Assembly (NCBI GenBank): GCA_031265205.1
Contig: JAISCZ010000094.1
Location: 1 to 19,580, forward strand
Length of the DNA: 19,580 nt
Source of the DNA: Deltaproteobacteria bacterium
Lineage (GTDB): Bacteria > Desulfobacterota > Desulfarculia > Adiutricales > Adiutricaceae
Reading direction: 5' to 3'
Shown: in pieces, positions 561 through 18,617 of the stretch
Layout: each line of letters starts with the position of its first letter
Numbering within the stretch: position 1 is the stretch's first letter
Program-made: the position numbers and the translations under genes
Notes under the pieces: generated by a model
Seen by the model: the letters and a program-made list of their open reading frames with translations, nothing else
What the model was told of the DNA's origin: nothing
The model's database searches: none

Positions 561-1850
561 ATGGCCATTATTGACGTCGTGAAATTCAACGGGCCTCCCC
601 GGATCCTGGCTTGGAAATACCCGAGCCAGGAGCTTTCCACCTGGACCCAGCTTATCGTCAACGAATCCCAAGAGGCCGTCTTTTACAAAGGCGGCCAGGC
701 CTTGGACGTCCTCGGGCCCGGGACCCACTCCCTGGACACCAACAACCTCCCCATCTTAAGGGCGCTCCTCAAGCTCCCCTTCGGCGGGGAAACGCCCTTC
801 GCCGCCGAGGTCTGGTTCGTCAACAAGACCCATTCCTTGGACGTGAAATGGGGCACGGCCTCCCCCATCCAGACCCAGGATCCCAAATTCGGGATCATGG
901 CGCCGGTGCGCGCCAACGGCCAGTTCGGGGTCCAGGTCGAAAACTCCGCCAAATTTCTCGTCAAATTAGTGGGCGCCACCCCCTCCTTTGACCAAGACGC
1001 TTTAATCAGATACTTCCGCGGCGTTTACCTCACCAAAGTCAAAGACACCCTAGCCCAGTACCTTATCCAAAAAAAAATCAGCGTCCTGGAGATCAGCGCC
1101 TACCTCGATGAGCTCAGCGGCCACATGGCCGAGAAGCTGACCCCCTATTTCGCGGAATACGGCATCCGTCTCCTCAATTTTTACGTGAACGACGTCAGCG
1201 TCCCGGATAACGATCCCGCCGTAATCCAGCTCAAAAACGCCTTGGCCAAGAAAGCCGAAATGAATATCATCGGCTACGACTACCGCGAGGAGCGCTCCTT
1301 TAACACCCTCGAGGAGGCGGCCAAAAACCCGGGCGCGGCGGGGAGCGTCATGGGCGCGGGCGTCGGGCTGGGAATGGGCTTAGGCTTGGGCGGCGCCATG
1401 GGCCAGCGGGCCGGGGACCTCGCCCAAAACATCAACGTCGCGGCCCCGGCGCCCACGGTCGCCTGCCCCAAGTGCCAGGCCAAGGTTCCCGCGAACGTTA
1501 AATTCTGCCCCGACTGCGGCCAAAACCTCGCCCCCTCCGCCGCCAAGGCCATCAAATGCGACAAATGCGGGGCGCTCATGTCCCCCAAAGCCAAATTCTG
1601 CCCCGAGTGCGGAGATCCTTACAATCCCTGCCCCAAGTGCGGCGAGGATCTCCCCAAGGGCGCCGCCAGCTGCCCCGCCTGCGGGTACGCCTTTCCCAAT
1701 CCCTGCCCGAACTGCGGCGAGCCCATTGAGCGGCCGGACGTCAAATTCTGCCCCGCCTGCGGCCAAAGCCTCGCGCGCGACTGTCCCGCCTGCCACGCGA
1801 CCAACGCCCCCGGAGCGAAATTCTGCCTCAACTGCGGCGCCAAACTGTAA
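561..1850 (+). CDS. SPFH/band-7 family protein of the COG4260 'Band_7_1' (B. subtilis YdjI-like) type, with a C-terminal array of five tandem zinc-ribbon units
   Basis: 429-aa ORF. The N-terminal ~290 aa match the pattern I associate with COG4260 SPFH proteins (…ILAWKYP…LIVNESQEAVFYKGGQALDVLGPGTHSLDTNNLPIL…). A Gly-rich linker (GAGVGLGMGLGLGGAMG) follows. Then five CxxC-N8-10-CxxCG units: CPKCQ…CPDCG, CDKCG…CPECG, CPKCG…CPACG, CPNCG…CPACG, CPACH…CLNCG. Coding-like high-GC codon usage. The gene lies downstream of a sigma70-like promoter at 383-412. No obvious SD (only a weak ggtg). Confidence 0.8.
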   Translation: MAIIDVVKFNGPPRILAWKYPSQELSTWTQLIVNESQEAVFYKGGQALDVLGPGTHSLDTNNLPILRALLKLPFGGETPFAAEVWFVNKTHSLDVKWGTASPIQTQDPKFGIMAPVRANGQFGVQVENSAKFLVKLVGATPSFDQDALIRYFRGVYLTKVKDTLAQYLIQKKISVLEISAYLDELSGHMAEKLTPYFAEYGIRLLNFYVNDVSVPDNDPAVIQLKNALAKKAEMNIIGYDYREERSFNTLEEAAKNPGAAGSVMGAGVGLGMGLGLGGAMGQRAGDLAQNINVAAPAPTVACPKCQAKVPANVKFCPDCGQNLAPSAAKAIKCDKCGALMSPKAKFCPECGDPYNPCPKCGEDLPKGAASCPACGYAFPNPCPNCGEPIERPDVKFCPACGQSLARDCPACHATNAPGAKFCLNCGAKL

Positions 1851-1867
1851 AATCGCGCGAGGGTCCC

Positions 1868-2653
1868 ATGCGTAACCTATTGTTCAAGACGATCTTCGCC
1901 GTCTGGGCGGCGCTGGTAATTTTCAGCGTCATTTTCGCGGCGCTAATCCCCGACAAAAGACTCGTTCAGTACGTCGCTTTCTTTTTCCTCCTAATAACCG
2001 AAACGGCCACGGCCGCCTCTCTCGCGTCGCTCTCCTTCGCCAAGGCCCGCGCCAACTTCAATCTCTTGGCCTTAGGGGTCAGCGTTACCGCGTCCGTCTA
2101 TTTCATCGTCGCCGGCCTCTTGGCCGTCCTCGCGCTGGCGGGCGTCCTCAACAACCCGCCGGCTTTGGCTTTCCTGGAGTTGGCGCTCCTTTTGCTCCTC
2201 GGCGTCGCGGTCTGGGTCTTTTTCCTTTTCGCCCAAAAGCGGGAAGGCGCGGACGCGGAAATCAGCCGCAAGGCCGCCCGTTCCCTTTCCTGGGAAAAAC
2301 GCCTCGCGGCCCTTCGCCGCGAAAGCCCCCAAGGCTCCCCCGTCCAGCTGGGCCTGGAAAAAGTTCTCGAGGAAGTCAGATATTTTTCCAAAACGGCCGA
2401 ACTCCCCTCGGATCTCTCTTTCGCCGCCAAACTCCTGGAGCTGGAAAAACTCCTCGCGCCCTCCCCCGCCGCCGACGCCCTCCCCGGGGCGGAGGGCCCC
2501 GTCGCGCCGGATAGCCTTCCAGGGGCGTCGGACTCCCCCGCGCCGGAAAGCCAAGCGACGGAAAGCGCGATCCTCGGAGTTATCGAGGAACTCCGCCGTC
2601 TCGCCCTCGCCCGCCGGGACGAAAGCGCCCTCGCCCGCAGGGGCCGCTTTTAA
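1868..2653 (+). CDS. Integral membrane protein (about 4 predicted TM helices) with a Pro/Ala/Glu-rich cytoplasmic C-terminal tail; hypothetical
   Basis: 261-aa ORF starting 17 nt after gene 1, with a GAGGG SD 4 nt upstream. There are four hydrophobic stretches of ~23 residues in the first 125 aa (e.g. LLFKTIFAVWAALVIFSVIFAALI; LLALGVSVTASVYFIVAGLLAVLALAGVL). The remainder is a charged, low-complexity helical tail. No family recognised. Confidence 0.6.
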   Translation: MRNLLFKTIFAVWAALVIFSVIFAALIPDKRLVQYVAFFFLLITETATAASLASLSFAKARANFNLLALGVSVTASVYFIVAGLLAVLALAGVLNNPPALAFLELALLLLLGVAVWVFFLFAQKREGADAEISRKAARSLSWEKRLAALRRESPQGSPVQLGLEKVLEEVRYFSKTAELPSDLSFAAKLLELEKLLAPSPAADALPGAEGPVAPDSLPGASDSPAPESQATESAILGVIEELRRLALARRDESALARRGRF

Positions 2654-2708
2654 GCCCCGCGCCCTGACCGTCAAAACCGCCGCGAGCGAAAATTAAGGAC
2701 CGGCCTGA

Positions 2709-3956
2709 ATGGAAGAAACAAATCAAGTACAGTGCCAAGCCTGCGGGGCGACGATCGCCGTGGTTCCCGGAGTGTCAACGTACGTCTGCGAATACTGTGG
2801 GAGCGAAGTCAATCTCTTCCAGCCCACGGTCGCCGAAATTATCCCCTTGGAGCCGGAAAAAATCATCTGCTTCAACGTGGACAAAAATAAATTCCACGCC
2901 TTTCTCTTGGATAAAATCGTCAGCGACCCCTTCGCCCCGGACGATATCCTCGAATCCGGGACCCTGGAAGAGGAAAAACTCAAATTCGTCCCCTGCTATT
3001 TTTTCCAAGGCCAATTCCGCGCCCACTGGACGGCCTCCTTCGGCTACGACCGCCAGGTGCGGGAAACGGTCTACGTGACCCGCGTGGAAGGAAACCGCCG
3101 CAGAAGCGTCCCGGAAACCCACTACCGCACGGTCACGGACTGGCGGCCCGCCTCCGGGGTGGCCGCGGGCGTGGCCCTCGTCCACGCCTACGCCGGGCCC
3201 CCGCTGCCCACCCAAATCCAGGACATGCTTAACGCCATTCCCTCCGACGCCAGCGTTCGCTACGCGAAAGGCTACGCGGCGGGCTTTAGCCTGGACCCCT
3301 TCGCGCTCAAACAGGCGGAAGTCGAGAGCCTTATCCTCAAACAAGCCCGCGCCGTAGCGCGAAGGGAGGTTCAATCCCACGCCCAGGGGGACCGCCAAAG
3401 GGACTGGCGCTTCAACGAGACTTGGGAAAAGACGGAATACGCGCCCGGCCTTTTGCCGCTGTGCGCGGCCACCTTCAAGTACGGGGAAACCCTTTATCGC
3501 TTTTGGGCCAGTGGGGAAAACATCGCCCTTAACTTAAACGATCCCCTGCCGAAGGACAAGTCGCGCCGCCGCAGGATCCGCCTCGGATGCGTTCCCGCGC
3601 TCCTTTGCGCCGTCGCTTTTTCCGCCTGCTATATACTCCTGGCCCGCGAGCCCCACCTTTATTCCATGGTCGTCGTCCCTACCGTCGCGGCGCTCGTTTT
3701 CGCCGCGCTCCGGCGCTCCTCCATTCTGAAATACTCGCGCCGCGTCCGGGAGGCCACTTTGGCGCGCCGCCAAATCGAGGATCTGTCCAACGCCGATAAT
3801 TACGAGGCCAAGGATCTCGACGCCCTCGAAAAGAAAGCCCAAAAACCTTCGCTCCCCGCGCTCGCCAACCACGCCTACGACGCGCTCTTCGTCTCCCTTT
3901 CAAGCCTCGTCCTCGTGGGCCTCGTCGTTCTCGCTTTCTTTATCTTGCGCCTTTAA
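2709..3956 (+). CDS. Zinc-ribbon membrane protein: N-terminal CxxC…CxxC zinc ribbon, ~260-aa soluble domain, 2-3 C-terminal TM helices; hypothetical
   Basis: 415-aa ORF with an AAGGA SD 9 nt upstream of ATG 2709. N-terminus: VQCQACGATIAVVPGVSTYVCEYCGS. C-terminal hydrophobic helices: RIRLGCVPALLCAVAFSACYILLA, LYSMVVVPTVAALVFAAL, LFVSLSSLVLVGLVVLAFFILRL. It is on the same strand as genes 1-2 with a 55-nt gap. Confidence 0.65.
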   Translation: MEETNQVQCQACGATIAVVPGVSTYVCEYCGSEVNLFQPTVAEIIPLEPEKIICFNVDKNKFHAFLLDKIVSDPFAPDDILESGTLEEEKLKFVPCYFFQGQFRAHWTASFGYDRQVRETVYVTRVEGNRRRSVPETHYRTVTDWRPASGVAAGVALVHAYAGPPLPTQIQDMLNAIPSDASVRYAKGYAAGFSLDPFALKQAEVESLILKQARAVARREVQSHAQGDRQRDWRFNETWEKTEYAPGLLPLCAATFKYGETLYRFWASGENIALNLNDPLPKDKSRRRRIRLGCVPALLCAVAFSACYILLAREPHLYSMVVVPTVAALVFAALRRSSILKYSRRVREATLARRQIEDLSNADNYEAKDLDALEKKAQKPSLPALANHAYDALFVSLSSLVLVGLVVLAFFILRL

Positions 3957-4037
3957 AAAACTTTTTTTGGCCCCGCCCCCTCGCCCGCGCCTGGGGGGCT
4001 TCCCGCGTCTCGCGGGGGGGACACAATCCGCGCGAGG

Positions 4038-5588
4038 GTGATGGATATGGACGGCGACGCGCCCCAAGTCCTCGAAAGAGACGATCCCTTCCGCGAGCCC
4101 CTCTTCCCCTACGCGCTAAAGGTCGCGGGAAGGCTCCCCGGGGTCCTCGAATCCTTGGCCCAAGGCGCTTTTCTCCTCCTCGAGGCCCCCCGTCTCGCCG
4201 GCAAAACAATGGCCTTAAAGGATCTGGCGCGGGAATTGAGCGCCTCTCCCGCCAATCTCGCGGTTTACGTCCCCCTTCGGGCCCTCGGGGGCGAAAGCGA
4301 CCCCGCGGCCGCCGTGGCCGCGACCGCGAGCCTCGTCGCCGAATCCCTCGCCGCTTTTCCGGGCGCCGCGCCGCCGGATCCCGGCCCCTACGCCCGGCGC
4401 CGCGGCCTCGCGGATTATCTGCCCAAGGTTTTGGAGACGGGCGAGCGGCGCCTCGCCCTTTTTCTCGACGACATCGACTCTCCGCCGGCCCCGGCGCGCG
4501 AAGCCCTGGTCGGGGAAATTTTCCTGGCCCTCGCGCGCGCCCAGGAGGGCGGGCGCCGCCTTTCCGCGCTCTTTTCGGCGAGATTGGGCTTCGCGGAGAC
4601 GCGCGCCGGGGGCGCGCCAGACGCCTTCGCGCGCTCGCCGCTCGCCTCCGCGCGCCTTATCTCCCTTCCCCCCTGGGGCCCCGACGACTTAAAGCTGCTT
4701 TTGGACGGCCCTTTCGCCAAGCGCGCCATAAGCTTCTCCCCGGAAGCCGCCGAAGAGCTCCTCTATTTTTCCGGGGGAAGCCCTGGCCTCACCGTCAAAC
4801 TCGTCTCCCGCGCGCTGGAAAGCCTTCCCCCGGGCTTCCAGGGGGAACTGGGCGCGGATCGCGTGGACCGGGCCTCGCGACTCCTCATTTTGGAGCGGCG
4901 GGGCAATTTCCTGGGTCCCCTCCTCCACCCCCTCGCCGACGCGCGCGTCCAAAGGGTCATGGAAGCGGTCCTGTTGGGGGACGGGGCGCTCCCCGCGGCG
5001 GCGACCATGGAAGACGTGGGCCTCTGCTTGGGCTTGGGCCTATTAAGCGACAAAGACTCTACCCTGGCCCCCACCTGCCCCCTCACGCGGGAGGCCATTT
5101 TAAGCGCCCTCGCCCACCGCTTCGCCCTCGCCCTCCCGCGCGATCTGGAGATCCCGTTCCGCGCGGGAAAAAGATTGGACATGGGCGTTTTGCTACTCAA
5201 TTTTCAGGCCTTTTTCCTGGAAACCGTCAAAGTTCCGCCGTCCTCCCCCGACTATTCCCCCAGCCACGGCCCCCTGGCCCTCGCGGCTTACCTTCAAAAG
5301 GCCCTGGGCGAGGAGGGTACCCTGCTTTCCGAGTACGGCCTGGGAAGGCGCCGCCTCGATCTCCTCTTAACCCGCGAGGGCCGCAACTATCCCGTCTTTA
5401 CCCGGGTCGCGGCCCAGGGCCCCCATAGCCCCACGCTCCTCAAAAATCTCGCCGCCCGCCTCGACCGCCTCCGCGCGACGGAGGGCTGGCTCGTTTATTT
5501 CAACCCTGTAGGCTCCGGGTCGTCCCCCAAGCCGCCCTTCGCGGCCGAAAAAATCGAGGGCCGGACTATCTATTGGCTTGAGTGCTAA
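4038..5588 (+). CDS. AAA-ATPase-like P-loop protein (PF09820-like N-terminus) with a probable degenerate PD-(D/E)xK ('PDDEXK_9'-like) C-terminal domain
   Basis: 516-aa ORF. Walker-A-like LLLEAPRLAGKTMAL resembles the …RPRRFGKS… signature of the predicted AAA-ATPase family. Walker-B-like LALFLDDIDSP. The C-terminal …EYGLGRRRLDLLLTREGRNYPVFTRV… resembles the E…GR.D..L motif of the DUF1703/PDDEXK_9 nuclease-like domain, but the terminal E/K appear substituted. The start is uncertain: GTG 4038, ATG 4041, or ATG 4047, which has better SD spacing. Confidence 0.55.
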   Translation: MMDMDGDAPQVLERDDPFREPLFPYALKVAGRLPGVLESLAQGAFLLLEAPRLAGKTMALKDLARELSASPANLAVYVPLRALGGESDPAAAVAATASLVAESLAAFPGAAPPDPGPYARRRGLADYLPKVLETGERRLALFLDDIDSPPAPAREALVGEIFLALARAQEGGRRLSALFSARLGFAETRAGGAPDAFARSPLASARLISLPPWGPDDLKLLLDGPFAKRAISFSPEAAEELLYFSGGSPGLTVKLVSRALESLPPGFQGELGADRVDRASRLLILERRGNFLGPLLHPLADARVQRVMEAVLLGDGALPAAATMEDVGLCLGLGLLSDKDSTLAPTCPLTREAILSALAHRFALALPRDLEIPFRAGKRLDMGVLLLNFQAFFLETVKVPPSSPDYSPSHGPLALAAYLQKALGEEGTLLSEYGLGRRRLDLLLTREGRNYPVFTRVAAQGPHSPTLLKNLAARLDRLRATEGWLVYFNPVGSGSSPKPPFAAEKIEGRTIYWLEC

Positions 5589-5855: not shown

Positions 5856-5907
5856 TTGACGGCGGGCGAGGGGCGCGATAAAATTAATTTAACAAATAAT
5901 TAATTTT
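5856..5907 (+). promoter_or_regulatory. tetR promoter (TTGACG-N16-ATAAAA) with overlapping operator: two AATTAATT palindromes 16 bp apart
   Basis: ttgacg 5856-5861 and ataaaa 5878-5883. AATTAATT sits at 5882-5889 and 5898-5905 within aaattaatttaacaaataattaatttt. This is the classic TetR autoregulatory layout. Confidence 0.5.
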
Positions 5908-5977
5908 GTCGCCCCGCCACGCGAATTTCGGGAAAAGAGGCGCGGTCCCCAGTGGCGCCCGCGCGAGGCGCGAGACT

Positions 5978-6691
5978 ATGTCGGAAAAAAGCAAACGTCG
6001 CCAGGTGGGCCGTCCCCCTGGGAATTCCACGGACAAGGCCAATCTCCGGGAGGATATCTTAAAGGAGGCCTTGGAAATCCTGGGAGAGCAGGGATTTACC
6101 CACTTTTCCCTCAAAAACGTCTCCACCCGGGTCGGAGTCACCCCCGCCGCCCTGTACCATTATTTCGCCAACAAGAACGCCCTCATCGAGGAAACCCTCG
6201 GACACTTCGTTCTCCCCGTGGTCTACGGTCTCTGGGAGCTGATGGATTTAGAGGACGACCCCGTCAAGATGGTGGTCGCGCTCATGGACAGGCTCATCGA
6301 AATCGCCAACTCCTCTCCCTGGTTTCTGCCCATGTGGGCGCGGGAGCTGGCCGACCCCGCCCAGCCCTTGCGCCGGTACTTAACCCAGAACGTGGACCCC
6401 CAAACCATTCACCGCTTCTGCGAAAAGCTGCGGAAAGCCAAAGAGAACAATATCGTCAATCCCGACCTTTTGCCGGACATGCTCTATATTTCCCTCTTCG
6501 CCTCCATTTTTATTCCCCTCCTGTCCATTTCCTCGTGGACGGACAGCTGGGGCTTTGACATTACCCCGGAAAGGCTGGTCGCCCATATCCGCTCCATGAC
6601 CCTCAAAGGCGTTTTTATGCCCCACGTCGAAATCGCCTTCAAGGACTCGCCTCCCCTGACTCTCCCGGAGCCCCCGCCCAAACCCCTTTGA
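5978..6691 (+). CDS. TetR/AcrR-family transcriptional repressor
   Basis: The N-terminal HTH is classic TetR_N: LREDILKEALEILGEQGFTHFSLKNVSTRVGVTPAALYHYFANKNALIEE. The start is chosen at ATG 5978 (MSEKSKRRQ…). The upstream in-frame ATG 5906 given in the ORF track lies inside the predicted operator/promoter. Confidence 0.85.
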   Translation: MSEKSKRRQVGRPPGNSTDKANLREDILKEALEILGEQGFTHFSLKNVSTRVGVTPAALYHYFANKNALIEETLGHFVLPVVYGLWELMDLEDDPVKMVVALMDRLIEIANSSPWFLPMWARELADPAQPLRRYLTQNVDPQTIHRFCEKLRKAKENNIVNPDLLPDMLYISLFASIFIPLLSISSWTDSWGFDITPERLVAHIRSMTLKGVFMPHVEIAFKDSPPLTLPEPPPKPL

Positions 6692-6752
6692 GCTTCGCGA
6701 GAGGCGCTTTTCCCCCTCTTTTTTTAGCTCCCTTTAACTTCCCTCGCCTCCC

Positions 6753-6969
6753 CCCGAGGCGGGCCCGAGAGCCCAATATTTCCCTTAAAGGGCTTTTCCC
6801 ACTCTTTTATAAAATCCCCGCCCCTCCCCTCCGGGGCCTTGCCGAGAGCCCAATATTTCCTTTTAAAGGGCTTTTCCCACTCTTTTAAAAATTCGCCCCG
6901 CCGCCCCGCCCCACGGGGGCGGGCCCGAGAGCCCTTTTCGCGCGCGAAGGGCTTTTTCCCACTTTCGCC
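6753..6969 (+). repeat. Three tandem direct repeats (~77-83 bp) between tetR and the efflux genes, each containing (G)CCGAGAGCCC … AAGGGCTTTTCCCAC; copies 1-2 also carry TTAAAG-N17-TATAAA-like promoter hexamers
   Basis: Copy anchors cccgagagccc are at 6764, 6841 and 6924. aagggcttttcccac is at 6787-6802, 6865-6880 and 6946-6962. Copy 3 has diverged, with the AT stretch replaced by ttttcgcgcgcg. Confidence 0.75.
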
Positions 6970-6981
6970 AAAGAGTCCCCC

Positions 6982-8172
6982 GTGTCCCCAACGCCTCCCC
7001 CGCCCAGCGCCTCTCCCCCCGGCGCCCACTCCAGCGCCAAGGCCGCTTTAAAGGCCCTGGCGGTTTTTTTCTTTTTGGGCCTCGTCGCCCTCGGCTGGTG
7101 GCTGGCCTTTAAAAGAGGCTACGTTTCCACGGACGACGCCTACGTCCAGGGCAACATTGTCCGCTTGAACGCCCAGGTCGCGGGCACGGTCACCGCGATT
7201 TTGGCCGACGCGACCCAAAGGGTCGCCGAGGGCGACGTTTTGGCGCGACTGGACTCCCAAGACGCCGAAAACGCCCTCGCCCGGGCCTGGAACGGCCTCC
7301 GGGCGGCCGCCCGCGACGTTTCCGCCCTCTACGCCGAAAGGGATAGGCTCCAGGCCGTCATCTTGGCCCAAGAGAGGACCTTGGACCTCAGCCGCCGGGA
7401 TCTGGAAAGGCGCGGCAAACTCTTTAGCGGCAATTCGGTGACCCAAGAAGAGCTGGAGCGCCACCAGATCCAAGTCCAAATCAACGAGGCCAATCTCCAA
7501 GCCGCCCAGGCCTCCCTCCTTTCCGCCAACCGCCGTCTGGGGGAAGGCCCCCCGGAAGAGCATCCCGCTATTTTAGAGGCGGCGTCCTTGGTGGAAAGCG
7601 CGTGGCTCGAGCTTTCCCGCCACGAAATTAAAAGCCCAGTCGCCGGGGTCGTCGCCAAACGCGCCGTCCAGGTGGGGAGCCAGGTGAGCCCCGGGACCCC
7701 CTTACTGATTTTAGTGGACGCGGAAAACGTCTGGGTGGACGCGAATTTCAAGGAGAGCCAGCTGGGAAACATCCGTCAGGGCCAACCCGCCCGGGTGACC
7801 GTGGACATGTACGGGAGTTCCGTCGTCTATCCCGCCGTGGTGGAGGGCCTCAGCCCCGGGACGGGCAGCGTCTTTTCCCTTCTCCCCCCGGAAAACGCCA
7901 CGGGCAACTGGATTAAAGTCGTCCAGAGGGCCCCTCTCCGCGTCGCCCTCGACCCCCAAGCCATCCGCGAGCGCCCGCTCCTGTTGGGCCTCTCCTGCTC
8001 CGTGGAGGTCAATCTCCGCGAAGGCGCCGTAAGTTCCGTCCCCTTTCGGGAAAAATGGGCCTTCGCGACGGACGCCATCGCGCGGGATTTGGATCCCGTC
8101 CGCCTGCAAATCCAAGACATAGTCCAGCGCGACCTCGGGGCGGCGGCGACGGTCGCCCCCGCGCAACCTTAA
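6982..8172 (+). CDS. HlyD-family membrane-fusion protein (EmrA-like periplasmic adaptor of an MFS efflux pump)
   Basis: GTG start with AAAGAG 6 nt upstream. Single N-terminal TM (LAVFFFLGLVALGWWLAF). EmrA signature YVSTDDAYVQGNIVRLNAQVAGTVTAI. Coiled-coil middle region and C-terminal beta-barrel-like region. Its stop overlaps the SD/start region of the following MFS gene. Confidence 0.85.
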   Translation: MSPTPPPPSASPPGAHSSAKAALKALAVFFFLGLVALGWWLAFKRGYVSTDDAYVQGNIVRLNAQVAGTVTAILADATQRVAEGDVLARLDSQDAENALARAWNGLRAAARDVSALYAERDRLQAVILAQERTLDLSRRDLERRGKLFSGNSVTQEELERHQIQVQINEANLQAAQASLLSANRRLGEGPPEEHPAILEAASLVESAWLELSRHEIKSPVAGVVAKRAVQVGSQVSPGTPLLILVDAENVWVDANFKESQLGNIRQGQPARVTVDMYGSSVVYPAVVEGLSPGTGSVFSLLPPENATGNWIKVVQRAPLRVALDPQAIRERPLLLGLSCSVEVNLREGAVSSVPFREKWAFATDAIARDLDPVRLQIQDIVQRDLGAAATVAPAQP

Positions 8173-8182
8173 GGCTTTTCCC

Positions 8183-9718
8183 ATGGCGGCAATCGCGCTC
8201 CGCGCGGGGGACTCTCTCCCCCCCATCACCGCCCGCGAAAGGGCGATCTTAACCTTCGCCCTGCCCCTCGCCACCTTTATGATGGTGGTGGACCTGACCA
8301 TCACCAACGTGGCGCTCCCCACCATCGCCGGAAACCTCGGGGCCTCCTACACCCAAGGGACCTGGATCATCACCTCCTACAGCGTGACCAACGCGATCGC
8401 GCTACCCCTCACGGGCCGTCTCGCCAAGCGCTACGGGGAGGTCAGGCTCTTTTTGGCCTCCACCGCCCTCTTCGCCCTGGCTTCCGTGTGCTGCGGGCTG
8501 GCCCCGAACATTACCGCCCTCGTCCTCTTTCGCGTTTTCCAGGGCGCCGCCGGCGGGCCCATGATTCCTTTGGCCCAATCCCTTCTGATCAACAATTACC
8601 CCAAAGAGAAAAAGGTGATGGCCCTGGCCCTCTGGTCCATGACCGTTTCGGTGGCGCCGGTGATAGGCCCCATTTTGGGAGGCGCCATCAGCGACAGTTA
8701 CCACTGGAGTTGGATCTTTTTTATCAACGCGCCTTTCGGGGCGATCGTGGTCTATTGCGTCGCCAAGGTCCTCTACCGCCGCGATTCCCCCACGAGCCCG
8801 GCGCCCTTCGGGACGGTTAATTTTCTCTTCCTCGCCCTGGGAGTGGGGGCGCTCCAAACGCTCCTCGACAAAGGCAAGGAACTCGACTGGTTCCACAGCG
8901 ATTTGATCGTGGCCCTGGCGGTCGTCGCCGTCGTGGGAATTACCCTCCTCATCGTCTGGGAAAGGCGCGACCCCGACCCCATAATTGACCTAAGCCTCTT
9001 TAAGTCCCGCAACTATTCCGTGGGCGCCGCTCTAATCAGCCTCGGCATGATGCTGTACATGGGGACCGTGGTCCTTTTGCCGCTCCTCCTGCAGACCTGG
9101 CATGGCTACACCGCCACCTGGGCGGGCCTGGCCCTCGCCCCCATCGGCCTTTTTCCCATCGTCCTCACCCCGCTGATAGGTCGCTACTCCCGTCGGCCGG
9201 ACTTGCGGCCCGTCGTCACTTTGAGCTTTTTAATCTTCGCGGGCTGCATGTTCGCGCGGACTTCTTTCGCGCCCCAGGCCGACCTCAAATTCGTCGTGCT
9301 CCCCCAGCTGATCCAAGGTCTCGCCCTGGCCACCTTTTTCGTGCCGCTCACGGCCCTGGCCTTTATGGACACGCCCCGCGAAAAAATGGCCTCGGCCGCG
9401 GGGCTCTTTAACTGCGTCCGCACCCTTTTCGGCGGGGTCGGGGCCTCCGTCGCGACGACCCTGTGGGAGCGCCGGGAGGCCTTCCACCACACCCGCCTGG
9501 TCGAAAATATCGACGGGATAAATCCCCTCTCCATCAGGGCGCTCGAAAGCCTCCAGTCCATGGGCCTCGGGGAAAGCGAGGCCTTGGGCTATCTGAGCCG
9601 GGAAATTACCAAGCAGGGCTACATTTTCGCCGGGGCGGAGATCTTCCAGCTCTGCGCCTTCGCTTTCTTAGCCATGATCGCCGTCGTCTGGCTCGCTCGG
9701 ACCCAGCGCGGCGCCTAA
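8183..9718 (+). CDS. MFS transporter, DHA2 (EmrB/QacA-like, 14-TM) drug:H+ antiporter family
   Basis: 511 aa with ~14 hydrophobic segments. MFS motif A-like GRLAKRYGEVRLF. Length and architecture are typical of EmrB. Translationally coupled to the adaptor gene. Confidence 0.85.
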   Translation: MAAIALRAGDSLPPITARERAILTFALPLATFMMVVDLTITNVALPTIAGNLGASYTQGTWIITSYSVTNAIALPLTGRLAKRYGEVRLFLASTALFALASVCCGLAPNITALVLFRVFQGAAGGPMIPLAQSLLINNYPKEKKVMALALWSMTVSVAPVIGPILGGAISDSYHWSWIFFINAPFGAIVVYCVAKVLYRRDSPTSPAPFGTVNFLFLALGVGALQTLLDKGKELDWFHSDLIVALAVVAVVGITLLIVWERRDPDPIIDLSLFKSRNYSVGAALISLGMMLYMGTVVLLPLLLQTWHGYTATWAGLALAPIGLFPIVLTPLIGRYSRRPDLRPVVTLSFLIFAGCMFARTSFAPQADLKFVVLPQLIQGLALATFFVPLTALAFMDTPREKMASAAGLFNCVRTLFGGVGASVATTLWERREAFHHTRLVENIDGINPLSIRALESLQSMGLGESEALGYLSREITKQGYIFAGAEIFQLCAFAFLAMIAVVWLARTQRGA

Positions 9719-11260: not shown

Positions 11261-11716
11261 ATGACCGCTGGAATCGCGAAAGACATATTAGACCGCTCGC
11301 GCGATCTAGCGGCGCGGCGCGCCTTTTGGGCCCGCGAGGCCTTGGGGCCGATAGCGAATCAAGACAGTCTCGCGCGCCATGACGGCCAAAAACCTATTCA
11401 AGCCCTTAAAATAGGCGCCGCCGTTGGCGACTCGGATTCCCGGAAAATCTTTTCCCGCCGCTCTTTCTTGGAAATAGCCTTGGAGGAAAGGCGCGTAAAA
11501 CTCAGCGCCCGCGATATTTCCCAAGATAATAACGCGAACGCGCTTCTCTCTACCGGAACGCGGCTTTTCGCCGCGTTAGCCTTGTTAGCGTTCGCGCCTT
11601 TATTTTTAAAAATCGCCAACGTTGGCGAGCCTTGTCGCGCCGCGGTCAACGGCGATTTTCCAGGCGACGGGCCGGCCCCGCGAGTCCCCGCGGAGAGAAA
11701 GGGGGGAAACAAATGA
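11261..11716 (+). CDS. Hypothetical protein (weak call)
   Basis: 151-aa ORF whose TGA overlaps the ATG of the downstream recombinase-like gene (ATGA overlap), suggesting translational coupling. There is a possible promoter at 11056-11084. The composition is Ala/Arg-rich and no motif was recognised, so it could be a spurious GC-rich ORF. Confidence 0.25.
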   Translation: MTAGIAKDILDRSRDLAARRAFWAREALGPIANQDSLARHDGQKPIQALKIGAAVGDSDSRKIFSRRSFLEIALEERRVKLSARDISQDNNANALLSTGTRLFAALALLAFAPLFLKIANVGEPCRAAVNGDFPGDGPAPRVPAERKGGNK

Positions 11717-13176
11717 GCGATTTTGACGCGGAGTGGGCCATCGCCTCCGTTCTTAAATTGATGGAACAAAAAGGGTACGTCCGCAAGAGCGTCATGGCTG
11801 TTCAAAGGGCTTACCGAGACGGGCTCCAAAGCTATCTCGCGCGAAAAGGCGCGACGCGGGCGACTTTGGACGATCTTGACGCCCATGTCAGGGAAAAACG
11901 CGCTCTCCACGAGGCGGGCCTCTTAAGCGTGGACCTCTGGAAGCTCGCCCGACGTTCCATAGAGGTTTTAAAAACCTTCGTCCTTACGGGCGACATCGAA
12001 ACGCCAAGAGTCGTCGCGTGGGACAGCGCGGCCCAAACGCCGCGCCTTTGCCTCGCGCGGCGCGTTCCGCCGCCGGAGCGATTAAACGCTCCGGACGATA
12101 TTTACGCGCAGCTTTGGCTGACCCGCCAGGAACTTCTCAAGATGGGCCTGAGCGAAGCGACGACGCGAAATTACACTGTCACGGGATTTAACGCCATCCT
12201 CCGCGCGCACGAGGAACTGGGCCTCAAGAGCTACAGCGAGAGCGCGATCTCCTCTCTAATCGCGGAGGCCAGGCGCGATTTCGAATCCGGGCGCAAATCG
12301 CGAGCCCGTTTAACCTGCCTCCTGAAAACCAGTTCCTGGCTCAGCGAATGGCGCCAAACCGGAAAACTCGCTATCTCCGGTCTCCACCGCACCGGCCAAT
12401 TGGAGCCAACCCCGGCTTTCGCCAGCCTCGCGGAGGCCTATTACGCCGAAGGCGCGGCTTTCCGCTCTTACGCCAAAAGCTTCGCCCGTCTCGTTAAAAG
12501 CGTTCTCCGGAGCGTTTTCTTTGAGCTGGAAGACGAGGGGTTTGAGTCATTTGAGGGGGTCACTCCCGCGTTATTCAAGAAAATAATAGACACTCTCGCC
12601 ATCCGCCGCAAAAACGGCGCGTCCACGCTGATTTCCGTTACCAGGGCCTTTTGCCATTTTCTGTTCTCCACCGGGCGCGTCAAGGAGGATTTAGGCCAAG
12701 AGCTTGGCCTGGACGCCGGGAAGGAAAAGCGTTTCCGGGACAGATTTTCCGCTGAAGAGGCCCGCGCTTTGCTGGAGGCCCCTAATCGCGAAACCCCGGA
12801 AGGCAAACGCGATTTCGCCATTATGCTCTTGGCGGCGCGCACGGGCGCGACCGCCGACGCTATCGCCAATATCAAGCGCGAGGACATTAATTTCCCGAGC
12901 GAGGAAATCCGCCTCCCCCTGGCCAACGCGCGCCAAGCCGTTCCCCTGGCCCTACCGCCGGACTGCCTTAAGGCTCTGGCGGATTACCTGGAAAACGGTC
13001 GCCCCCCCAGTCCTCTTCCCCATCTTTTTCTCTACGGCGAAGCGGACGCGCCGACTCCCCTCGACGCCCGTAAAATCAGCCGCGTGGTCAGAACTCATTT
13101 AAAAAAGGCCAATTTCAGCGGCCCTAAGGGCGCGGGATGGGGCTATCAGAGTTTACGGCGGACAGGCTTACCCTAA
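11713..13176 (+). CDS. Tyrosine recombinase (phage-integrase family)-like protein, degenerate and apparently C-terminally truncated (possible pseudogene or inactive relic)
   Basis: Strong SD (AAAGGGGGGAAACAA-ATG). An N-terminal SAM-like core-binding region is followed by a box-I-like segment RDFAIMLLAARTGATADAIANIKREDI (compare XerD RDRAMLELLYATGLRVSEL). The conserved TGLR Arg is replaced (TGAT). The protein ends at …GYQSLRRTGLP*, which resembles the HxLRHT box with H to Q. No downstream LGH…Y nucleophile segment is found in any frame after 13176. Confidence 0.6.
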   Translation: MSDFDAEWAIASVLKLMEQKGYVRKSVMAVQRAYRDGLQSYLARKGATRATLDDLDAHVREKRALHEAGLLSVDLWKLARRSIEVLKTFVLTGDIETPRVVAWDSAAQTPRLCLARRVPPPERLNAPDDIYAQLWLTRQELLKMGLSEATTRNYTVTGFNAILRAHEELGLKSYSESAISSLIAEARRDFESGRKSRARLTCLLKTSSWLSEWRQTGKLAISGLHRTGQLEPTPAFASLAEAYYAEGAAFRSYAKSFARLVKSVLRSVFFELEDEGFESFEGVTPALFKKIIDTLAIRRKNGASTLISVTRAFCHFLFSTGRVKEDLGQELGLDAGKEKRFRDRFSAEEARALLEAPNRETPEGKRDFAIMLLAARTGATADAIANIKREDINFPSEEIRLPLANARQAVPLALPPDCLKALADYLENGRPPSPLPHLFLYGEADAPTPLDARKISRVVRTHLKKANFSGPKGAGWGYQSLRRTGLP

Positions 13177-13625: not shown

Positions 13626-14312
13626 TTAAAGGTCTTTGAGCGTCCCCTGAACCAGGGCGTTTAAGATATCGCGGTTTAAAATGACGATATAGGGCTTCTC
13701 CTCCATAATAGCTTTTTTCCCTTTCAGGAAGGTCAAAGCGCGGGAAACCGTCTCCGGGGAAGTGCCGATGAAGGACGCGAGCTGGCCTTTGCTGAAGTTC
13801 AGCTTCATCCTTCCGCTGACTTCCTCGTGATTCAAGATAAAGGAAGCCAAACGGGCGGGCGCTTCTTTGATGGTCCTCGACTCGAAAAGGTGAGCGAAAT
13901 CAGCCAATTTCAAAGCGAGGAGACTGAGGAAATTGCGCCCGAGACTGGAATTTTCGGCGATAAGCCGCCTCATCCTTTCTCCCGCGAAAAAATAAGCGCT
14001 CGATTTATCCAGAGACTGGGCGGTGGAAGGATATCCGTGCTCCAGAAAAATTCCGGCTTCGCCGAAGGAGTCGCCCGGCGCCAAAACGCGCAGAAGCTGT
14101 TCCTTCGAGCCGTTTCCGCTCACGAAAATCCTTATCTTACCCTCAACCAAAACGTAAAGACCGCCTCCAGGATCGCCGCGATTGAAAATGACCTGACCAG
14201 GCTGGTAATGTTTCAAAACGGCGGTTTGTAAAAGCGTTTCAATATCTTGAGGCTCAAGATCGCAAAAAAAAGCGGTTTTTTTCACAATCAAACTAAGATC
14301 ATCCTGAGTCAT
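13626..14312 (-). CDS. Crp/Fnr-family transcriptional regulator (cNMP-binding domain plus C-terminal HTH)
   Basis: 228 aa with a perfect AAGGAGG SD 7 nt upstream of the ATG. cNMP-binding fold motifs: GQVIFNRGDPGGGLYVLVEGKIRIF…LAPGDSFGEAGIF. HTH: GQLASFIGTSPETVSRALTFLKGKKAI. There is no N-terminal Cys cluster, so it is Crp-like rather than FNR-like. Confidence 0.85.
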   Translation of the reverse strand: MTQDDLSLIVKKTAFFCDLEPQDIETLLQTAVLKHYQPGQVIFNRGDPGGGLYVLVEGKIRIFVSGNGSKEQLLRVLAPGDSFGEAGIFLEHGYPSTAQSLDKSSAYFFAGERMRRLIAENSSLGRNFLSLLALKLADFAHLFESRTIKEAPARLASFILNHEEVSGRMKLNFSKGQLASFIGTSPETVSRALTFLKGKKAIMEEKPYIVILNRDILNALVQGTLKDL

Positions 14313-15413: not shown

Positions 15414-18400
15414 TTAAAAAATAAAATTCAGGCCGAGCGTCCCCTCATGGACAGAGGTGGTTTTTCCGCGAAGCAAGGAATATTCTAGCCTAAGCTCCGT
15501 ATGGGCTCCCAGACGGACGCCGCAATTGAGCCCGAGCCCGAGACTGTTTTCATCCAGTCCGTCCACGGGCGCGTAGAAGCGGTTGGCTTCAGGGTCCAGC
15601 GCGAAGGAGGCGGATGGGGATTTTTTCGTGTCGCCGCTTAATCCCGACCAATACGCCTTGGCCCCAATGCCGCCGCGTTCCGTTACCCACGCGCCTTCCA
15701 GTCCCGCCTGGAGCCGGTAGAGGCGATTGCGGGTATGGTCAAAGCGCAGTCCGTAGACGTCAGGTCGCTCGGAGTAGGAGTCTCTACTCATGTTGAAATA
15801 GCGCCAATCCGCGAAGGGGAGAATCATGAAGTTTTCCGAAATCTCGAAACGTCGCCCGAGACTGACGCCGACGCTCGCCATTTTGGCGTCGTAGTCGCTG
15901 TCATAGCTGTTTCCGCCGACCGCGCGAGTCTGCTTGAAACGCGCGCCGCCAAACGCGCCGACGAACCCCAGTTCCAGGCCACGGGGCAGGCGGACGCCGC
16001 CGTAAAAAATGGCGTTTGCCCCCCGACCGTCCACATCCGCGTCGCTACTTTCATAGCGCGGAAAGTCTAGGGACAGAGCCAGCCCCAGATACAGGTTGTC
16101 AGCGAAATAACGATCCACGCCAAAAGTGACGCCGGATCCGAAAATTGTGTAATCCCTGTCGCCTCCGTGTTTGAGAAACCCGTAGGCGGGGGCGATCCAT
16201 ACGCCGTTCCGTCGCGACGCGGCGTCCAATCCTCCGCCGTCTCGCGATTGCCCACCCGCGGACGGCGCGCCCGGCCGCGCGTCCCGAAAAGCGTAAACCT
16301 GGCCTAGCCACCCGCTCCCGGCCAAAGGCGACCACCGCGACGAAAAGGATTTCTCGTCCTCAAAAGGACCGTCCGCTCGCGGAGAGAGTGGGCCGCGCGC
16401 GGCCGCGTCCGAAAATCGCCTGCCCATTCTGGAGCTTACGGCGTTCAGGCCGGGCTGACGCATGAGTATCGGCAAAGGCGCGTTAAGAGCGTCCGCGCCG
16501 CCACGCTGATGGTTGAAGGCGGCCCGCGTGACGTTAACCATGACGGAATGAAGGTTCGCGTCCCAGTCAAGGCCGTTCCAGGCGTAGTCGAACGCTCCCA
16601 TGGCGAAAGCGCCGGCCGATTGCCGCAGCGGCGGCGCGACGGGAGCGGACAGCGTGAATTCCAGCGCGGGACTGCCGCCGAGAGCGAGCTGACGGCCATA
16701 GCTGAAGGCGCACGGCGCGAAGCCGATTTCCGACAGCGGCGAAAGGCTCGCGGAATCGCTGGCCGCGATTTCGGTGGGTTTGCCGCCCACGAATTCGGTC
16801 ATGAGCCGGGCGCCGTCAGCCATGGAAAAAGAGCGGACACGCATGCTTCCGGCGTAATCTAGACTGCCTCCCTCAAGTGAAACGTTGACGCTCGAAGAGC
16901 CGAGAATATCGCCCCGATAACGCGTCTCGAACGCGGGGTCGCTGGAAGAGGGAATGGCTTTCCCGAAGCTGTCCATCAGCTTTCCGAAGGTCAGCTCCGT
17001 CATGAAGTCCGACGGGTCGCCGAATAAGCCGCCGTAGATTTCGGGAGCCCAGCGGATGACGATGTCCCCAAAAATAAACGCTCCGTTCATGACGTTGACG
17101 GTTTTTACGTGCGCGTACGGAGAGACGTACATGGCGATGGGCCTGCCCCCGTAATCGACGAATTCGCCGGAAAAATACTGGCCGCCGATGGCGGAAGGCC
17201 CGCCCACCAGAACCCCGCTCAGATCGAAACTGTCAACCAGAGGTCCGCCGATGTTCCCTATCCTCGGTTCCTGCGACACCCTGGATATCTCTCTTCCTTC
17301 CGCGTCGAAAGTGACAACGGCGTTCGGGTTGAGATAATAGCGTCCGTATGAAAAAAGACGGCCATAAACGGAAGGAGCGCCGAAATCAAACCTCGCTCCG
17401 ACGCCGAGAGGTCCGGACGCCTCGACGACGCCCTGGCTGACGATATTGTGCCCAGAACCGAAGGACACCAGAATGCCGGCGCCCTGGGCGCCGTTGGCGG
17501 TGACCAGCGTGTCCTTGGGAATGGTCACGCTGTTGTTGAATCCGTCCACGCGCACGCCCGCCCCGCCCGCTCCGTCGGCCAGCAGATCCGCCATCTGCGT
17601 GACGCCGTAGTCGCTGCCGTAGACATGAAGGCCCACGCCGAAACGGCTGACGTTGGGAGTTCCCTCGGCGTAACCCAGCCAGCCGCCAGCGGGATCAAGC
17701 CCCTCGCTGGCGTAAAATCCCTGATTATTTTCTATAATACCCGGCGATGGCGAGTCGTCATACAATGACAAGCCGAAAAAATTACGCAGATCCACGGGAT
17801 AACCTATGTCCACCAGAGACGCCAGCTCCACCTCCGTGAACATTGAGTAATTAATAAGTTGCAGATGTGTCATAAGTCCGTTTCGCACGGCGAAATGACT
17901 GGTTTCCTGAGAACTTCCATGGGTCATAGGCACGGGTCCGCCGAAAACTTGCGTGGCCGTGGGTCCGGTAAAAAACATCTCGCCCGGGGCGCCGACCAGT
18001 AAATTTCTAAAATTCTGATCGTTATCGGAAATGCCGATGGAGTGGCCAATCTCGTGAATCGTGACGAGGGAAATCGATCCGGCGGTTTCAGGCAAGTTGG
18101 AGTTGGACTGGGTGTCCCAGACTGAATTATCTATGTTGACGAGGGCGTGCATTCCAATTAGAGGATCGTGGGGCAAGCCTGACGCGGTCAGGGGGCTTCC
18201 ATCGCCGACGATGGAGCTCCAGATGGAACCTCTGTCAAAATCCGCGGGGTTTTTGAGATATATCGACCCGCCATTGAAGTCCGCGCCGGGCCCAATCCAC
18301 AGCCGCAGCGTCACGGCGTTGGCCGGAGCGCCGCGGGGCTTGAGAATGTCAGCCCAGTAGGCCGCGACCTTGACAATGCCTTCACGGACGGGAAGAGAAA

Positions 18401-18617
18401 AATCACTGGCGGACACATAGACGATTAAGTCGCCCCCGGAGCCAGTTCTGGCTAGGTAGGGGAGTCCCTCGCCGAAAAAATCCAGCCGGAATATTTCTTT
18501 TCCGTCAAAATTGAGTATGGAAACGCTTTCTGGCGCGCTGGCGCCTCGCGCGCTCCCCAAGGGAAACAACGAAAACAGAAGGCAGAATACGCCGAAAAGC
18601 CGAAGAGGTAGGGACAT
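15414..18617 (-). CDS. Autotransporter (type Va) outer-membrane protein with a passenger domain carrying an HExxHxxGxxD zinc-metallopeptidase-like motif
   Basis: 1067 aa. N-terminal signal peptide MSLPLRLFGVFCLLFSLFPLGSARGASA. Motif VTIHEIGHSIGISDND at residues ~186-200 (nt ~18024-18062). Gly-rich repetitive passenger region. The C-terminal ~270 aa have alternating hydrophobic beta-strand character and end in …GTLGLNFIF (terminal Phe), as in autotransporter beta-barrels. GC content is lower than in the left half of the window. Confidence 0.7.
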   Translation of the reverse strand: MSLPLRLFGVFCLLFSLFPLGSARGASAPESVSILNFDGKEIFRLDFFGEGLPYLARTGSGGDLIVYVSASDFSLPVREGIVKVAAYWADILKPRGAPANAVTLRLWIGPGADFNGGSIYLKNPADFDRGSIWSSIVGDGSPLTASGLPHDPLIGMHALVNIDNSVWDTQSNSNLPETAGSISLVTIHEIGHSIGISDNDQNFRNLLVGAPGEMFFTGPTATQVFGGPVPMTHGSSQETSHFAVRNGLMTHLQLINYSMFTEVELASLVDIGYPVDLRNFFGLSLYDDSPSPGIIENNQGFYASEGLDPAGGWLGYAEGTPNVSRFGVGLHVYGSDYGVTQMADLLADGAGGAGVRVDGFNNSVTIPKDTLVTANGAQGAGILVSFGSGHNIVSQGVVEASGPLGVGARFDFGAPSVYGRLFSYGRYYLNPNAVVTFDAEGREISRVSQEPRIGNIGGPLVDSFDLSGVLVGGPSAIGGQYFSGEFVDYGGRPIAMYVSPYAHVKTVNVMNGAFIFGDIVIRWAPEIYGGLFGDPSDFMTELTFGKLMDSFGKAIPSSSDPAFETRYRGDILGSSSVNVSLEGGSLDYAGSMRVRSFSMADGARLMTEFVGGKPTEIAASDSASLSPLSEIGFAPCAFSYGRQLALGGSPALEFTLSAPVAPPLRQSAGAFAMGAFDYAWNGLDWDANLHSVMVNVTRAAFNHQRGGADALNAPLPILMRQPGLNAVSSRMGRRFSDAAARGPLSPRADGPFEDEKSFSSRWSPLAGSGWLGQVYAFRDARPGAPSAGGQSRDGGGLDAASRRNGVWIAPAYGFLKHGGDRDYTIFGSGVTFGVDRYFADNLYLGLALSLDFPRYESSDADVDGRGANAIFYGGVRLPRGLELGFVGAFGGARFKQTRAVGGNSYDSDYDAKMASVGVSLGRRFEISENFMILPFADWRYFNMSRDSYSERPDVYGLRFDHTRNRLYRLQAGLEGAWVTERGGIGAKAYWSGLSGDTKKSPSASFALDPEANRFYAPVDGLDENSLGLGLNCGVRLGAHTELRLEYSLLRGKTTSVHEGTLGLNFIF

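Follow-up and report, generated by a model that had tools for sequence, protein, structure and literature searches.

Three adjacent genes at positions 561–3956 of a contig from a metagenome-assembled genome (MAG) of a "Deltaproteobacteria bacterium" probably encode an SPFH complex associated with the membrane, of the YdjGHI/SamGHI type known from Bacillus subtilis but lacking pspA, and a fourth gene directly downstream is best regarded as separate from it. The window analyzed is the whole contig of 19,580 nt, and our view of the genome ends with it. We base this reading on the homologies of the proteins, their architectures, their gene order, and the absence of pspA and of defense signatures from the sequences searched. 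An original prediction for this stretch had joined all four genes in one module, likened them to the B. subtilis pspA-ydjGHI operon (renamed pspA-samGHI), and suggested roles in envelope stress or anti-phage defense. The parallel with Bacillus has held up, in that gene 3 is recognizable as a remote homolog of YdjG and gene 1 as a homolog of YdjI; the grouping of four genes has not, since comparative genomics shows only genes 1–3 travelling together.

Gene 1 (positions 561–1850, forward strand) encodes a 429-aa SPFH protein homologous to YdjI/SamI. Pfam places a Band_7_1 domain (PF13421) at aa 19–220 (E = 1.9e-48), in agreement with the family originally proposed (COG4260), and the Band_7 model PF01145 gives a weak match (E = 3.5e-6). 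The domain is followed by a Gly/Met-rich low-complexity linker (approximately aa 255–300) and, at aa 302–429, by five CxxC-x(n)-CxxC units, as counted by regular expression; the Zn_Ribbon_1 and DZR models likewise match five stretches. The five-fold fusion of zinc ribbons to the SPFH protein is thus as predicted. A hydrophobicity scan revealed no transmembrane (TM) segment. Aligned with the B. subtilis-type YdjI by BLASTP (E = 8e-19), the protein matches across the SPFH domain, the linker, and the ribbon, and on this comparison gene 1 is a homolog of YdjI/SamI. Among 55 full-length gene 1 homologs (from loci L001–L079 of the survey described below), the number of ribbons is bimodal: five in 27 proteins and none in 24, with very few in between. 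The five-fold array is therefore a conserved feature of a sub-clade rather than a peculiarity of this genome.

Gene 3 (positions 2709–3956, forward strand; GenBank locus tag LBO66_08555) encodes a YdjG/SamG-like membrane protein of 415 aa with a zinc ribbon, a conserved domain, and three TM segments. The ribbon (C9/C12/C27/C30, CxxC-x14-CxxC) is invariant in the family alignment. The conserved beta-rich domain of ~245 aa (aa ~45–288) is predicted to be cytoplasmic and precedes a TM hairpin (aa ~290–336) and a C-terminal TM segment (aa ~388–415). Three motifs, ASFGYDR, TVTDWRP, and GDRQRDW, are nearly invariant in the family. An AlphaFold2 model built from the family alignment has a mean confidence score (pLDDT) of 91.9 and comprises the ribbon, a beta-rich core with long hairpins (aa ~50–280), the TM hairpin, and a C-terminal TM helix. 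Apart from sub-threshold ribbon matches, the protein has no match in Pfam or NCBIfam, and the core domain has no significant structural neighbor in the PDB.

For comparison with Bacillus, we located a B. subtilis-type pspA-ydjG-ydjH-ydjI locus through a degenerate pattern derived from a published ydjG primer; the proteins of the fetched locus match PspA_IM30, Zn_Ribbon_TF, TPM_phosphatase, and Band_7_1, respectively. In hhalign comparisons, an alignment of proteobacterial-type gene 3 proteins matches YdjG at 99.1% (E = 1.7e-18, 262 columns), and an alignment that includes Firmicute-type members at 99.9% (E = 1.2e-33). The signal persists for the core domains alone, with ribbons and TM segments removed (98.1%, E = 1.3e-13), and falls to 0.8% when the YdjG core is reversed or shuffled. 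Pairwise BLASTP detects the ribbon alone, and the homology between gene 3 and YdjG is therefore remote. On the strength of these alignments, we regard gene 3 as a true, if distant, homolog of YdjG/SamG. Note that when Firmicute-type gene 3 relatives were used to seed a profile search, no protein named YdjG appeared among the 120 matches listed.

The gene 3 family is variable in its C-terminal part. A homolog search yielded 94 proteins, from Deltaproteobacteria MAGs, Oxalobacter, Herminiimonas, and Burkholderiaceae. Many are longer than the gene 3 protein of the window, which represents a short form, and carry TPR, LprI, or TPM domains at the C terminus. These extensions follow the last TM segment and are predicted to be extracytoplasmic (TPM in protein P0025, LprI in P0026, TPR in others); such periplasmic TPR, LprI, and TPM domains point to envelope sensing by the long-form proteins. 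P0025 deserves separate mention: It is a single gene 3 homolog bearing at its C terminus the TPM domain, the domain type of YdjH, and so constitutes a domain-fusion link between YdjG-type and YdjH-type partners. In several loci (L013, L025, and L044), gene 3 is tandemly duplicated.

Gene 2 (positions 1868–2653, forward strand) lies between the two and encodes a polytopic membrane protein of 261 aa, with approximately four TM segments and a helical tail. Hydrophobic segments, three to four in number, fall within aa 1–125; the tail, which is predicted to be cytoplasmic, is helical and of low complexity and carries an E..RY motif conserved in the family alignment. There is no Pfam model for this protein, and neither it nor ten diverse relatives gave a Pfam match. 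The original prediction had seen in genes 1–3 the same three ingredients as in ydjGHI. This is right for the SPFH protein (YdjI) and for the YdjG homolog; for gene 2 the correspondence is one of analogy, with no homology to YdjH. A profile of the gene 2 family compared with YdjH gave an hhalign probability of 0.45%, and no protein of the window matches TPM_phosphatase, while YdjH itself matches that model (PF04536) at 7.7e-22. As far as sequence comparison can tell, gene 2 is not homologous to the TPM protein YdjH and is a non-homologous occupant of the position of second membrane partner. An over-iterated hidden Markov model (HMM) of gene 2 matched overlapping shadow open reading frames (ORFs), and we therefore counted only matches lying between homologs of gene 1 and gene 3. 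By this count, gene 2 homologs occupy the interval in at least 42 loci.

The three genes are conserved together well beyond this genome. We scanned one genome per GTDB species with a gene 3 profile, which gave 80 loci, and ran HMMs of the four window proteins on the ORFs of these loci. Gene order was counted in the 61 loci having at least 2.6 kb upstream of gene 3. The order gene 1-gene 2-gene 3 on one strand was found in 42 of these 61, with median gaps of 28 and 54 nt. In five more loci gene 1 lies upstream of gene 3, with gene 2 missed or overlapping, and in three (L001, L007, and L013) genes 1 and 2 are farther upstream, behind insertions or a gene 3 duplication. Carriers of this triad comprise Deltaproteobacteria MAGs, Oxalobacter, Paraburkholderia, Pandoraea, Caballeronia, Massilia, Variovorax, Sutterella, and Dakarella, together with a Chlorobi bin, an Acidobacteriota bin, and an archaeal-labeled bin. 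The co-occurrence outside this genome that the original prediction called for is thus borne out for genes 1–3, which are conserved across several phyla. When neighboring ORFs were clustered all against all, genes 1, 2, and 3 were the only widely conserved neighbors.

Where we inspected its surroundings, the triad is set in ordinary chromosomal contexts, among genes for seryl-tRNA synthetase, glutamate dehydrogenase, MgsA, and ribosomal proteins. Gene 3 has no homolog in a phage collection of 50,697 records. In a plasmid collection, the six closest matches are on replicons of 1.4–2.2 Mb, and three weaker ones are on plasmids of 245–373 kb. In two plasmid regions inspected (Paracoccus and Comamonas), an SPFH gene is followed by a gene for a zinc-ribbon protein. 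The Paracoccus pair, a distant one on Paracoccus ferrooxidans pFER4 (L096, 269–4987), comes after genes for a TelA-like "toxic anion resistance protein" and a DUF2927 protein on the same strand, possibly another association with envelope stress. An XRE-type helix-turn-helix regulator gene stands just upstream of the triad in Oxalobacter formigenes (L002, 4130–5662) and in one termite MAG (L087, 785–1087). In O. formigenes the gene is oriented divergently, with a 299-aa ORF after it; the equivalent region of our contig would lie beyond the edge of the window. This regulator could be a local regulator of the triad.

Gene 4 (positions 4038–5588, forward strand; 516 aa from a GTG start) encodes an AAA+/Cdc6-like ATPase with a PD-(D/E)xK-like tail that lacks the ExK motif. 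GenBank starts the gene at the ATG at 4047, which gives a protein of 513 aa and a gap of 90 nt after gene 3. The sole Pfam match, in a listing at E ≤ 10, is a sub-threshold one to AAA_16 (E = 0.049), and five close relatives likewise match AAA_16 weakly or have no Pfam match. A word-indexed homolog search returned only the protein itself. An exhaustive phmmer search brought up 357 relatives (E ≤ 1e-3), most of them of 500–580 aa; the wider relatives match AAA_35, AAA_22, and ATPase_2 and, in their C-terminal part, NucS_C or UPF0102. The family consensus has a Walker A motif APRQxGKT, a Walker B motif hhhhDE/D, and a C-terminal E..GxGRxDL...ExK, that is, a canonical PD-(D/E)xK signature. The window protein keeps Walker A (APRLAGKT), Walker B (LFLDD), and the E and D of E..GxGRxDL. 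The ExK of the family aligns to F-T-R in this protein and to G-A-V in P0097. In an AlphaFold2 model (pLDDT 86.3), the AAA+ core is followed by a helical region and then, at the C terminus, by an alpha-beta-beta-beta-alpha-beta domain that retains the topology of the nuclease fold; the best Foldseek matches in the PDB are the archaeal Walker ATPases 2qen and 2fna, followed by Cdc6/Orc1 and RFC subunits (E about 1e-8). Motifs and model together support a P-loop AAA+ ATPase with a degenerate PD-(D/E)xK-like domain. The original prediction therefore had the right kind of protein in view, an AAA-ATPase with a degenerate nuclease-like tail; its assignment to PF09820 and PF08011 did not stand, neither model matching at E ≤ 10.

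The distribution of gene 4 is patchy and restricted to a lineage. Besides the window, just five distinct loci have it adjoining gene 3: L001 (on the same contig as L011), L008, L013, L016, and L017. All are Deltaproteobacteria MAGs from termite gut, and in each gene 4 lies immediately downstream of a short-form gene 3; the isolate names of these related MAGs are ones we take to be typical of a collection from higher-termite guts. In these termite-clade proteins the Walker A lysine is replaced by arginine (SGRT) and ExK is also lost. Their ATPase and nuclease sites thus look degenerate, and yet the sequences are well conserved among themselves. In the window, gene 4 is followed on the forward strand by an efflux cluster (5906–9718) of a TetR regulator, an HlyD/EmrA-like adaptor, and an MFS/EmrB-like pump, beyond which lies a convergent regulator gene of the Crp/Fnr type (13626–14312, reverse strand). 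This TetR-efflux-Crp block is syntenic in the related MAGs L005, L010, L012, L014, and L089 and is the other conserved neighbor of gene 4. In the closest syntenic relatives (L005, L010, L012, and L014), the MFS transporters of which are 62%–67% identical to that of the window, gene 3 is followed by the TetR, HlyD, and MFS genes with no gene 4, and we found no remnants of gene 4 in these loci. In L089, a gene 4 homolog (33% identity) is found upstream of the TetR-HlyD-MFS-Crp block, preceded by an SRAP gene and not by gene 3; the contig ends 78 nt farther on. A more distant relative sits among Kelch-repeat and SpoIID genes. The adjacency being patchy and lineage-restricted, and contexts elsewhere unrelated, the place in a conserved module that had been proposed for gene 4 is not upheld; as regards this gene, one of the outcomes that the original prediction had itself named as refuting it has come about. 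Gene 4 is most simply read as a local neighbor, variably retained in the gene 3/TetR-efflux region of this lineage, and is to be dropped from the module.

How might the three proteins work? Members of the SPFH superfamily generally oligomerize and are expected to act as cage- or ring-forming scaffolds that regulate membrane partners. Most likely, gene 3 and gene 2 would form an integral-membrane platform, which would bring the TM-less gene 1 protein to the cytoplasmic side of the membrane. Once in place, the SPFH protein would oligomerize, with its five-ribbon tail as an array for protein-protein interactions, and would contribute to envelope or membrane-stress homeostasis by organizing or restraining its membrane partners. 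Recruitment, oligomerization, and the stress role are proposed here on the strength of homology with B. subtilis, in which membrane localization of YdjI needs YdjG and YdjH and the proteins interact (PMC8581546), SamI restrains signaling by SamGH (bioRxiv 10.64898/2026.02.06.704340), and the module is induced by envelope or alkaline stress through sigma-W (PMC8581546). Gene 4 would be a separate gene that in this lineage lies by chance between the module and the TetR-EmrAB-like efflux cluster; we would count it among a broad family of ATPase-nuclease-like proteins that stand alone, with the nuclease motif degenerate in this case.

Several points weigh against this picture. The third protein of the Bacillus operon is the TPM-domain protein YdjH, and in the window its place is taken by the unrelated gene 2, with approximately four TM segments and a helical tail; phmmer found no PspA-like ORF (E ≤ 1) within ~8 kb in the window or in 82 loci, using two PspA queries. 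With gene 2 unrelated to YdjH and pspA absent, the Bacillus mechanism may transfer only in part. The motifs ASFGYDR, TVTDWRP, and GDRQRDW have no conserved counterpart in B. subtilis YdjG and may point to an activity or ligand lacking in Bacillus. As for the separateness of gene 4, this gene follows gene 3 at 81–90 nt with no predicted terminator between them, and co-transcription with genes 1–3 is possible in this organism. Its GC content at third codon positions (0.80) equals that of its neighbors, its higher overall GC content stemming from amino-acid composition, and gene 4 is therefore a resident and not a recent foreign insertion. These last observations would also suit a system of all four genes that senses envelope perturbation or phage and controls gene 4 as an effector in defense or abortive infection, and such a system could draw further on the adjacency of genes 3 and 4 in five other distinct loci, although in these both proteins are only ~31%–38% identical to those of the window. 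We nevertheless consider it improbable. At least 50 other triad loci, the four closest syntenic ones among them, have no gene 4; its homolog in L089 keeps company with the efflux cluster and SRAP, its distant relatives stand in unrelated contexts, its catalytic ExK is lost, and the termite-clade relatives have arginine for the Walker A lysine. None of the four proteins has a match in PADLOC-DB v2 at E ≤ 0.01, the window proteins have no informative NCBIfam matches, and the loci inspected include no defense-island context. Together with the lack of phage homologs of gene 3 and the housekeeping surroundings, this leaves the anti-phage or abortive-infection role suggested in the original prediction unsupported.

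A different possibility is strict agreement with Bacillus: The triad would serve chiefly as a receptor that recruits to the membrane a PspA/IM30 (ESCRT-III-like) protein encoded elsewhere in the genome. Genes 1 and 3 are homologous to YdjI and YdjG, as this would require, and with 19.6 kb of the MAG in view a distant pspA is conceivable. Still, it seems to us an unlikely arrangement. Pfam finds no PspA_IM30 match among the window proteins, so that Pfam and phmmer agree with the original observation that no pspA is visible in the window; the surveyed loci add no PspA-like ORF and no further conserved neighbor, and YdjH, the partner that interacts with PspA, is replaced by an unrelated protein. 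Moreover, the developmental phenotype of samI loss in B. subtilis is PspA-independent (bioRxiv 10.64898/2026.02.06.704340), and the module therefore has PspA-independent functions even there. One may go further and take the proteobacterial-type triad for an autonomous, PspA-independent system of membrane sensing and scaffolding, with a dedicated partner of four TM segments and a helical tail, a YdjG-like protein, and a Band_7_1 SPFH component with either no zinc ribbons or exactly five. The nearly invariant domain of gene 3 could then bind a ligand or catalyze a reaction, a role that Bacillus SamG would not share, the periplasmic TPR, LprI, and TPM extensions would act as envelope sensors in the long forms, and the termite-gut lineage may have captured the gene 4 protein as an output or adaptor. 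We hold this proposal tentatively, with about as little confidence as the strictly Bacillus-like one. That the adjacency of genes 1–3 is incidental, or that the ORFs are not real genes, is highly implausible. Genes 2 and 3 do lack Pfam and NCBIfam matches, but the gene 3 family has 94 homologs with invariant motifs and a confidently predicted structure, and the gene order is kept across phyla, with genes 1–3 the only conserved neighbors. The SamGHI-type complex of genes 1–3, with gene 4 apart, is thus the reading we prefer.

The layout of the locus is largely as first described. The four ORFs are on the same strand with gaps of exactly 17, 55, and 81 nt between genes 1 and 2, 2 and 3, and 3 and 4, and no terminator-like sites are predicted in these three gaps. 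The promoter originally placed at 383–412 corresponds to a sigma-70-like candidate there on the forward strand (TTTACG-18 nt-TATAAT, preceded by TG), with 10 of 12 matches to the consensus, which is a consensus match only; six sigma-70-like sites were found in 7 kb, where shuffled sequences lead us to expect 0.9. A Shine-Dalgarno sequence had been proposed for each gene. GAGG-type motifs are indeed present 5' of genes 2–4, and gene 1 has only a weak GGTG. The GC-rich 5' leader adopts a stable fold, but not one beyond that of shuffled sequences (z = −1.7), and Rfam and tRNA scans of the window gave no matches. The AT-rich stretch at the start of the contig (130–250) holds a strong promoter-like site on the reverse strand (178–149, 11 of 12 matches), which suggests a divergent gene just past the contig end.

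Elsewhere in the window, a 514-aa ORF (11632–13176, forward strand) has a sub-threshold match to Phage_integrase (E = 4.9e-5; 23.6 bits against a cut-off of 27.1), and just 3' of it, at ~13.5–15.5 kb, the GC content falls to 0.44–0.48. The ORF and the drop in GC may mark the remnant or the boundary of a mobile element. On the reverse strand, 15414–18617 encodes a protein of 1067 aa with a signal-like segment at its N terminus and an Autotransporter beta-domain (E = 4.2e-28) at its C terminus.

SPFH proteins are universal membrane organizers. To our knowledge, the Band_7_1 branch has been studied only in B. subtilis (YdjI/SamI), and always in connection with PspA. Genes 1–3 are a widespread, unstudied Gram-negative form of this barely studied SPFH system, and not a new class of system; a literature search on this SPFH family gave no description of the proteobacterial triad. 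The occurrence of the SPFH and YdjG-like pair across Gram-negative phyla, without pspA and with a different third partner, suggests an ancestral functional core made up of this pair, to which PspA and YdjH were added in particular lineages. Cultivable carriers (Oxalobacter formigenes, Paraburkholderia, Pandoraea, Massilia, and Variovorax) offer tractable systems for the function of the pair. The analysis also brings out two sizeable families, those of gene 2 and gene 3, currently without a Pfam model, the core of the latter being without a significant solved structural neighbor, and it removes as unsupported the tempting reading of a new defense system.

Among known systems, gene 4 is closest to the archaeal/bacterial Walker ATPases PABY2304 (2qen) and SSO1545 (2fna), to the Cdc6/Orc1-like AAA+ group, and to AAA_35 proteins that have a C-terminal PD-(D/E)xK domain. 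Shared features are the AAA+ fold with its lid and winged-helix-like region, an APRxxGKT-type Walker A, and the C-terminal alpha-beta-beta-beta-alpha-beta domain; gene 4 differs in the loss of ExK and in falling below threshold for every Pfam ATPase model. Gene 1 has its SPFH domain in common with HflK/C-FtsH, the FloA/FloT flotillins, and QmcA-YbbJ/NfeD. Unlike these, it has no membrane anchor of its own and no NfeD or FtsH partner, and it belongs to the distinct Band_7_1 family. Nearer to the triad are the pairs of YdjG-like and Band_7_1 genes in Clostridia, Synergistetes, Spirochaetes, Paracoccus, and Comamonas, which draw on the same families of SPFH and TVTDW-motif zinc-ribbon membrane proteins. 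These two-gene pairs lack gene 2, and in the Firmicute type the partner carries two ribbons at its N terminus and, as a rule, a single TM segment, and its gene precedes the SPFH gene. The gene 3 relatives of Clostridia and Synergistetes have this double ribbon, which in some matches PF08271, and are encoded directly beside a Band_7_1 gene.

The closest characterized counterpart is the pspA-ydjGHI operon itself. B. subtilis YdjG has been described as two zinc ribbons, an uncharacterized NTF2-like domain, and a TM segment, YdjH as a TPM-domain protein, and YdjI (there written "YdjL") as a Band-7 domain with a ribbon (bioRxiv 10.1101/2020.09.24.301986); YdjG carries the Pfam domain TF_Zn_Ribbon (PMC9239133). 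Both loci encode an SPFH protein of the Band_7_1 family, devoid of TM segments and ending in a Gly-rich linker and zinc ribbon, a YdjG/SamG-type protein of zinc ribbon(s), central domain, and TM (gene 3 in the window), and, between or beside these, a second membrane protein, all in genes tightly linked on one strand. The differences are in order and detail: The SPFH gene is last in Bacillus and first in the window, and pspA is part of the operon in the former and missing from the latter. YdjI has one ribbon and gene 1 five; YdjG has two ribbons and one TM segment, whereas gene 3 has one ribbon and three TM segments, along with the three conserved motifs that YdjG lacks. The window-type module, unlike pspA-ydjGHI, is found in Gram-negative lineages. 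Judged by its predicted proteins, the module has two of the four sequence-level features of the Bacillus operon, the TPM partner and pspA being the two that it lacks, and we therefore call it a SamI/SamG-type module with a different third partner rather than a SamGHI ortholog set.

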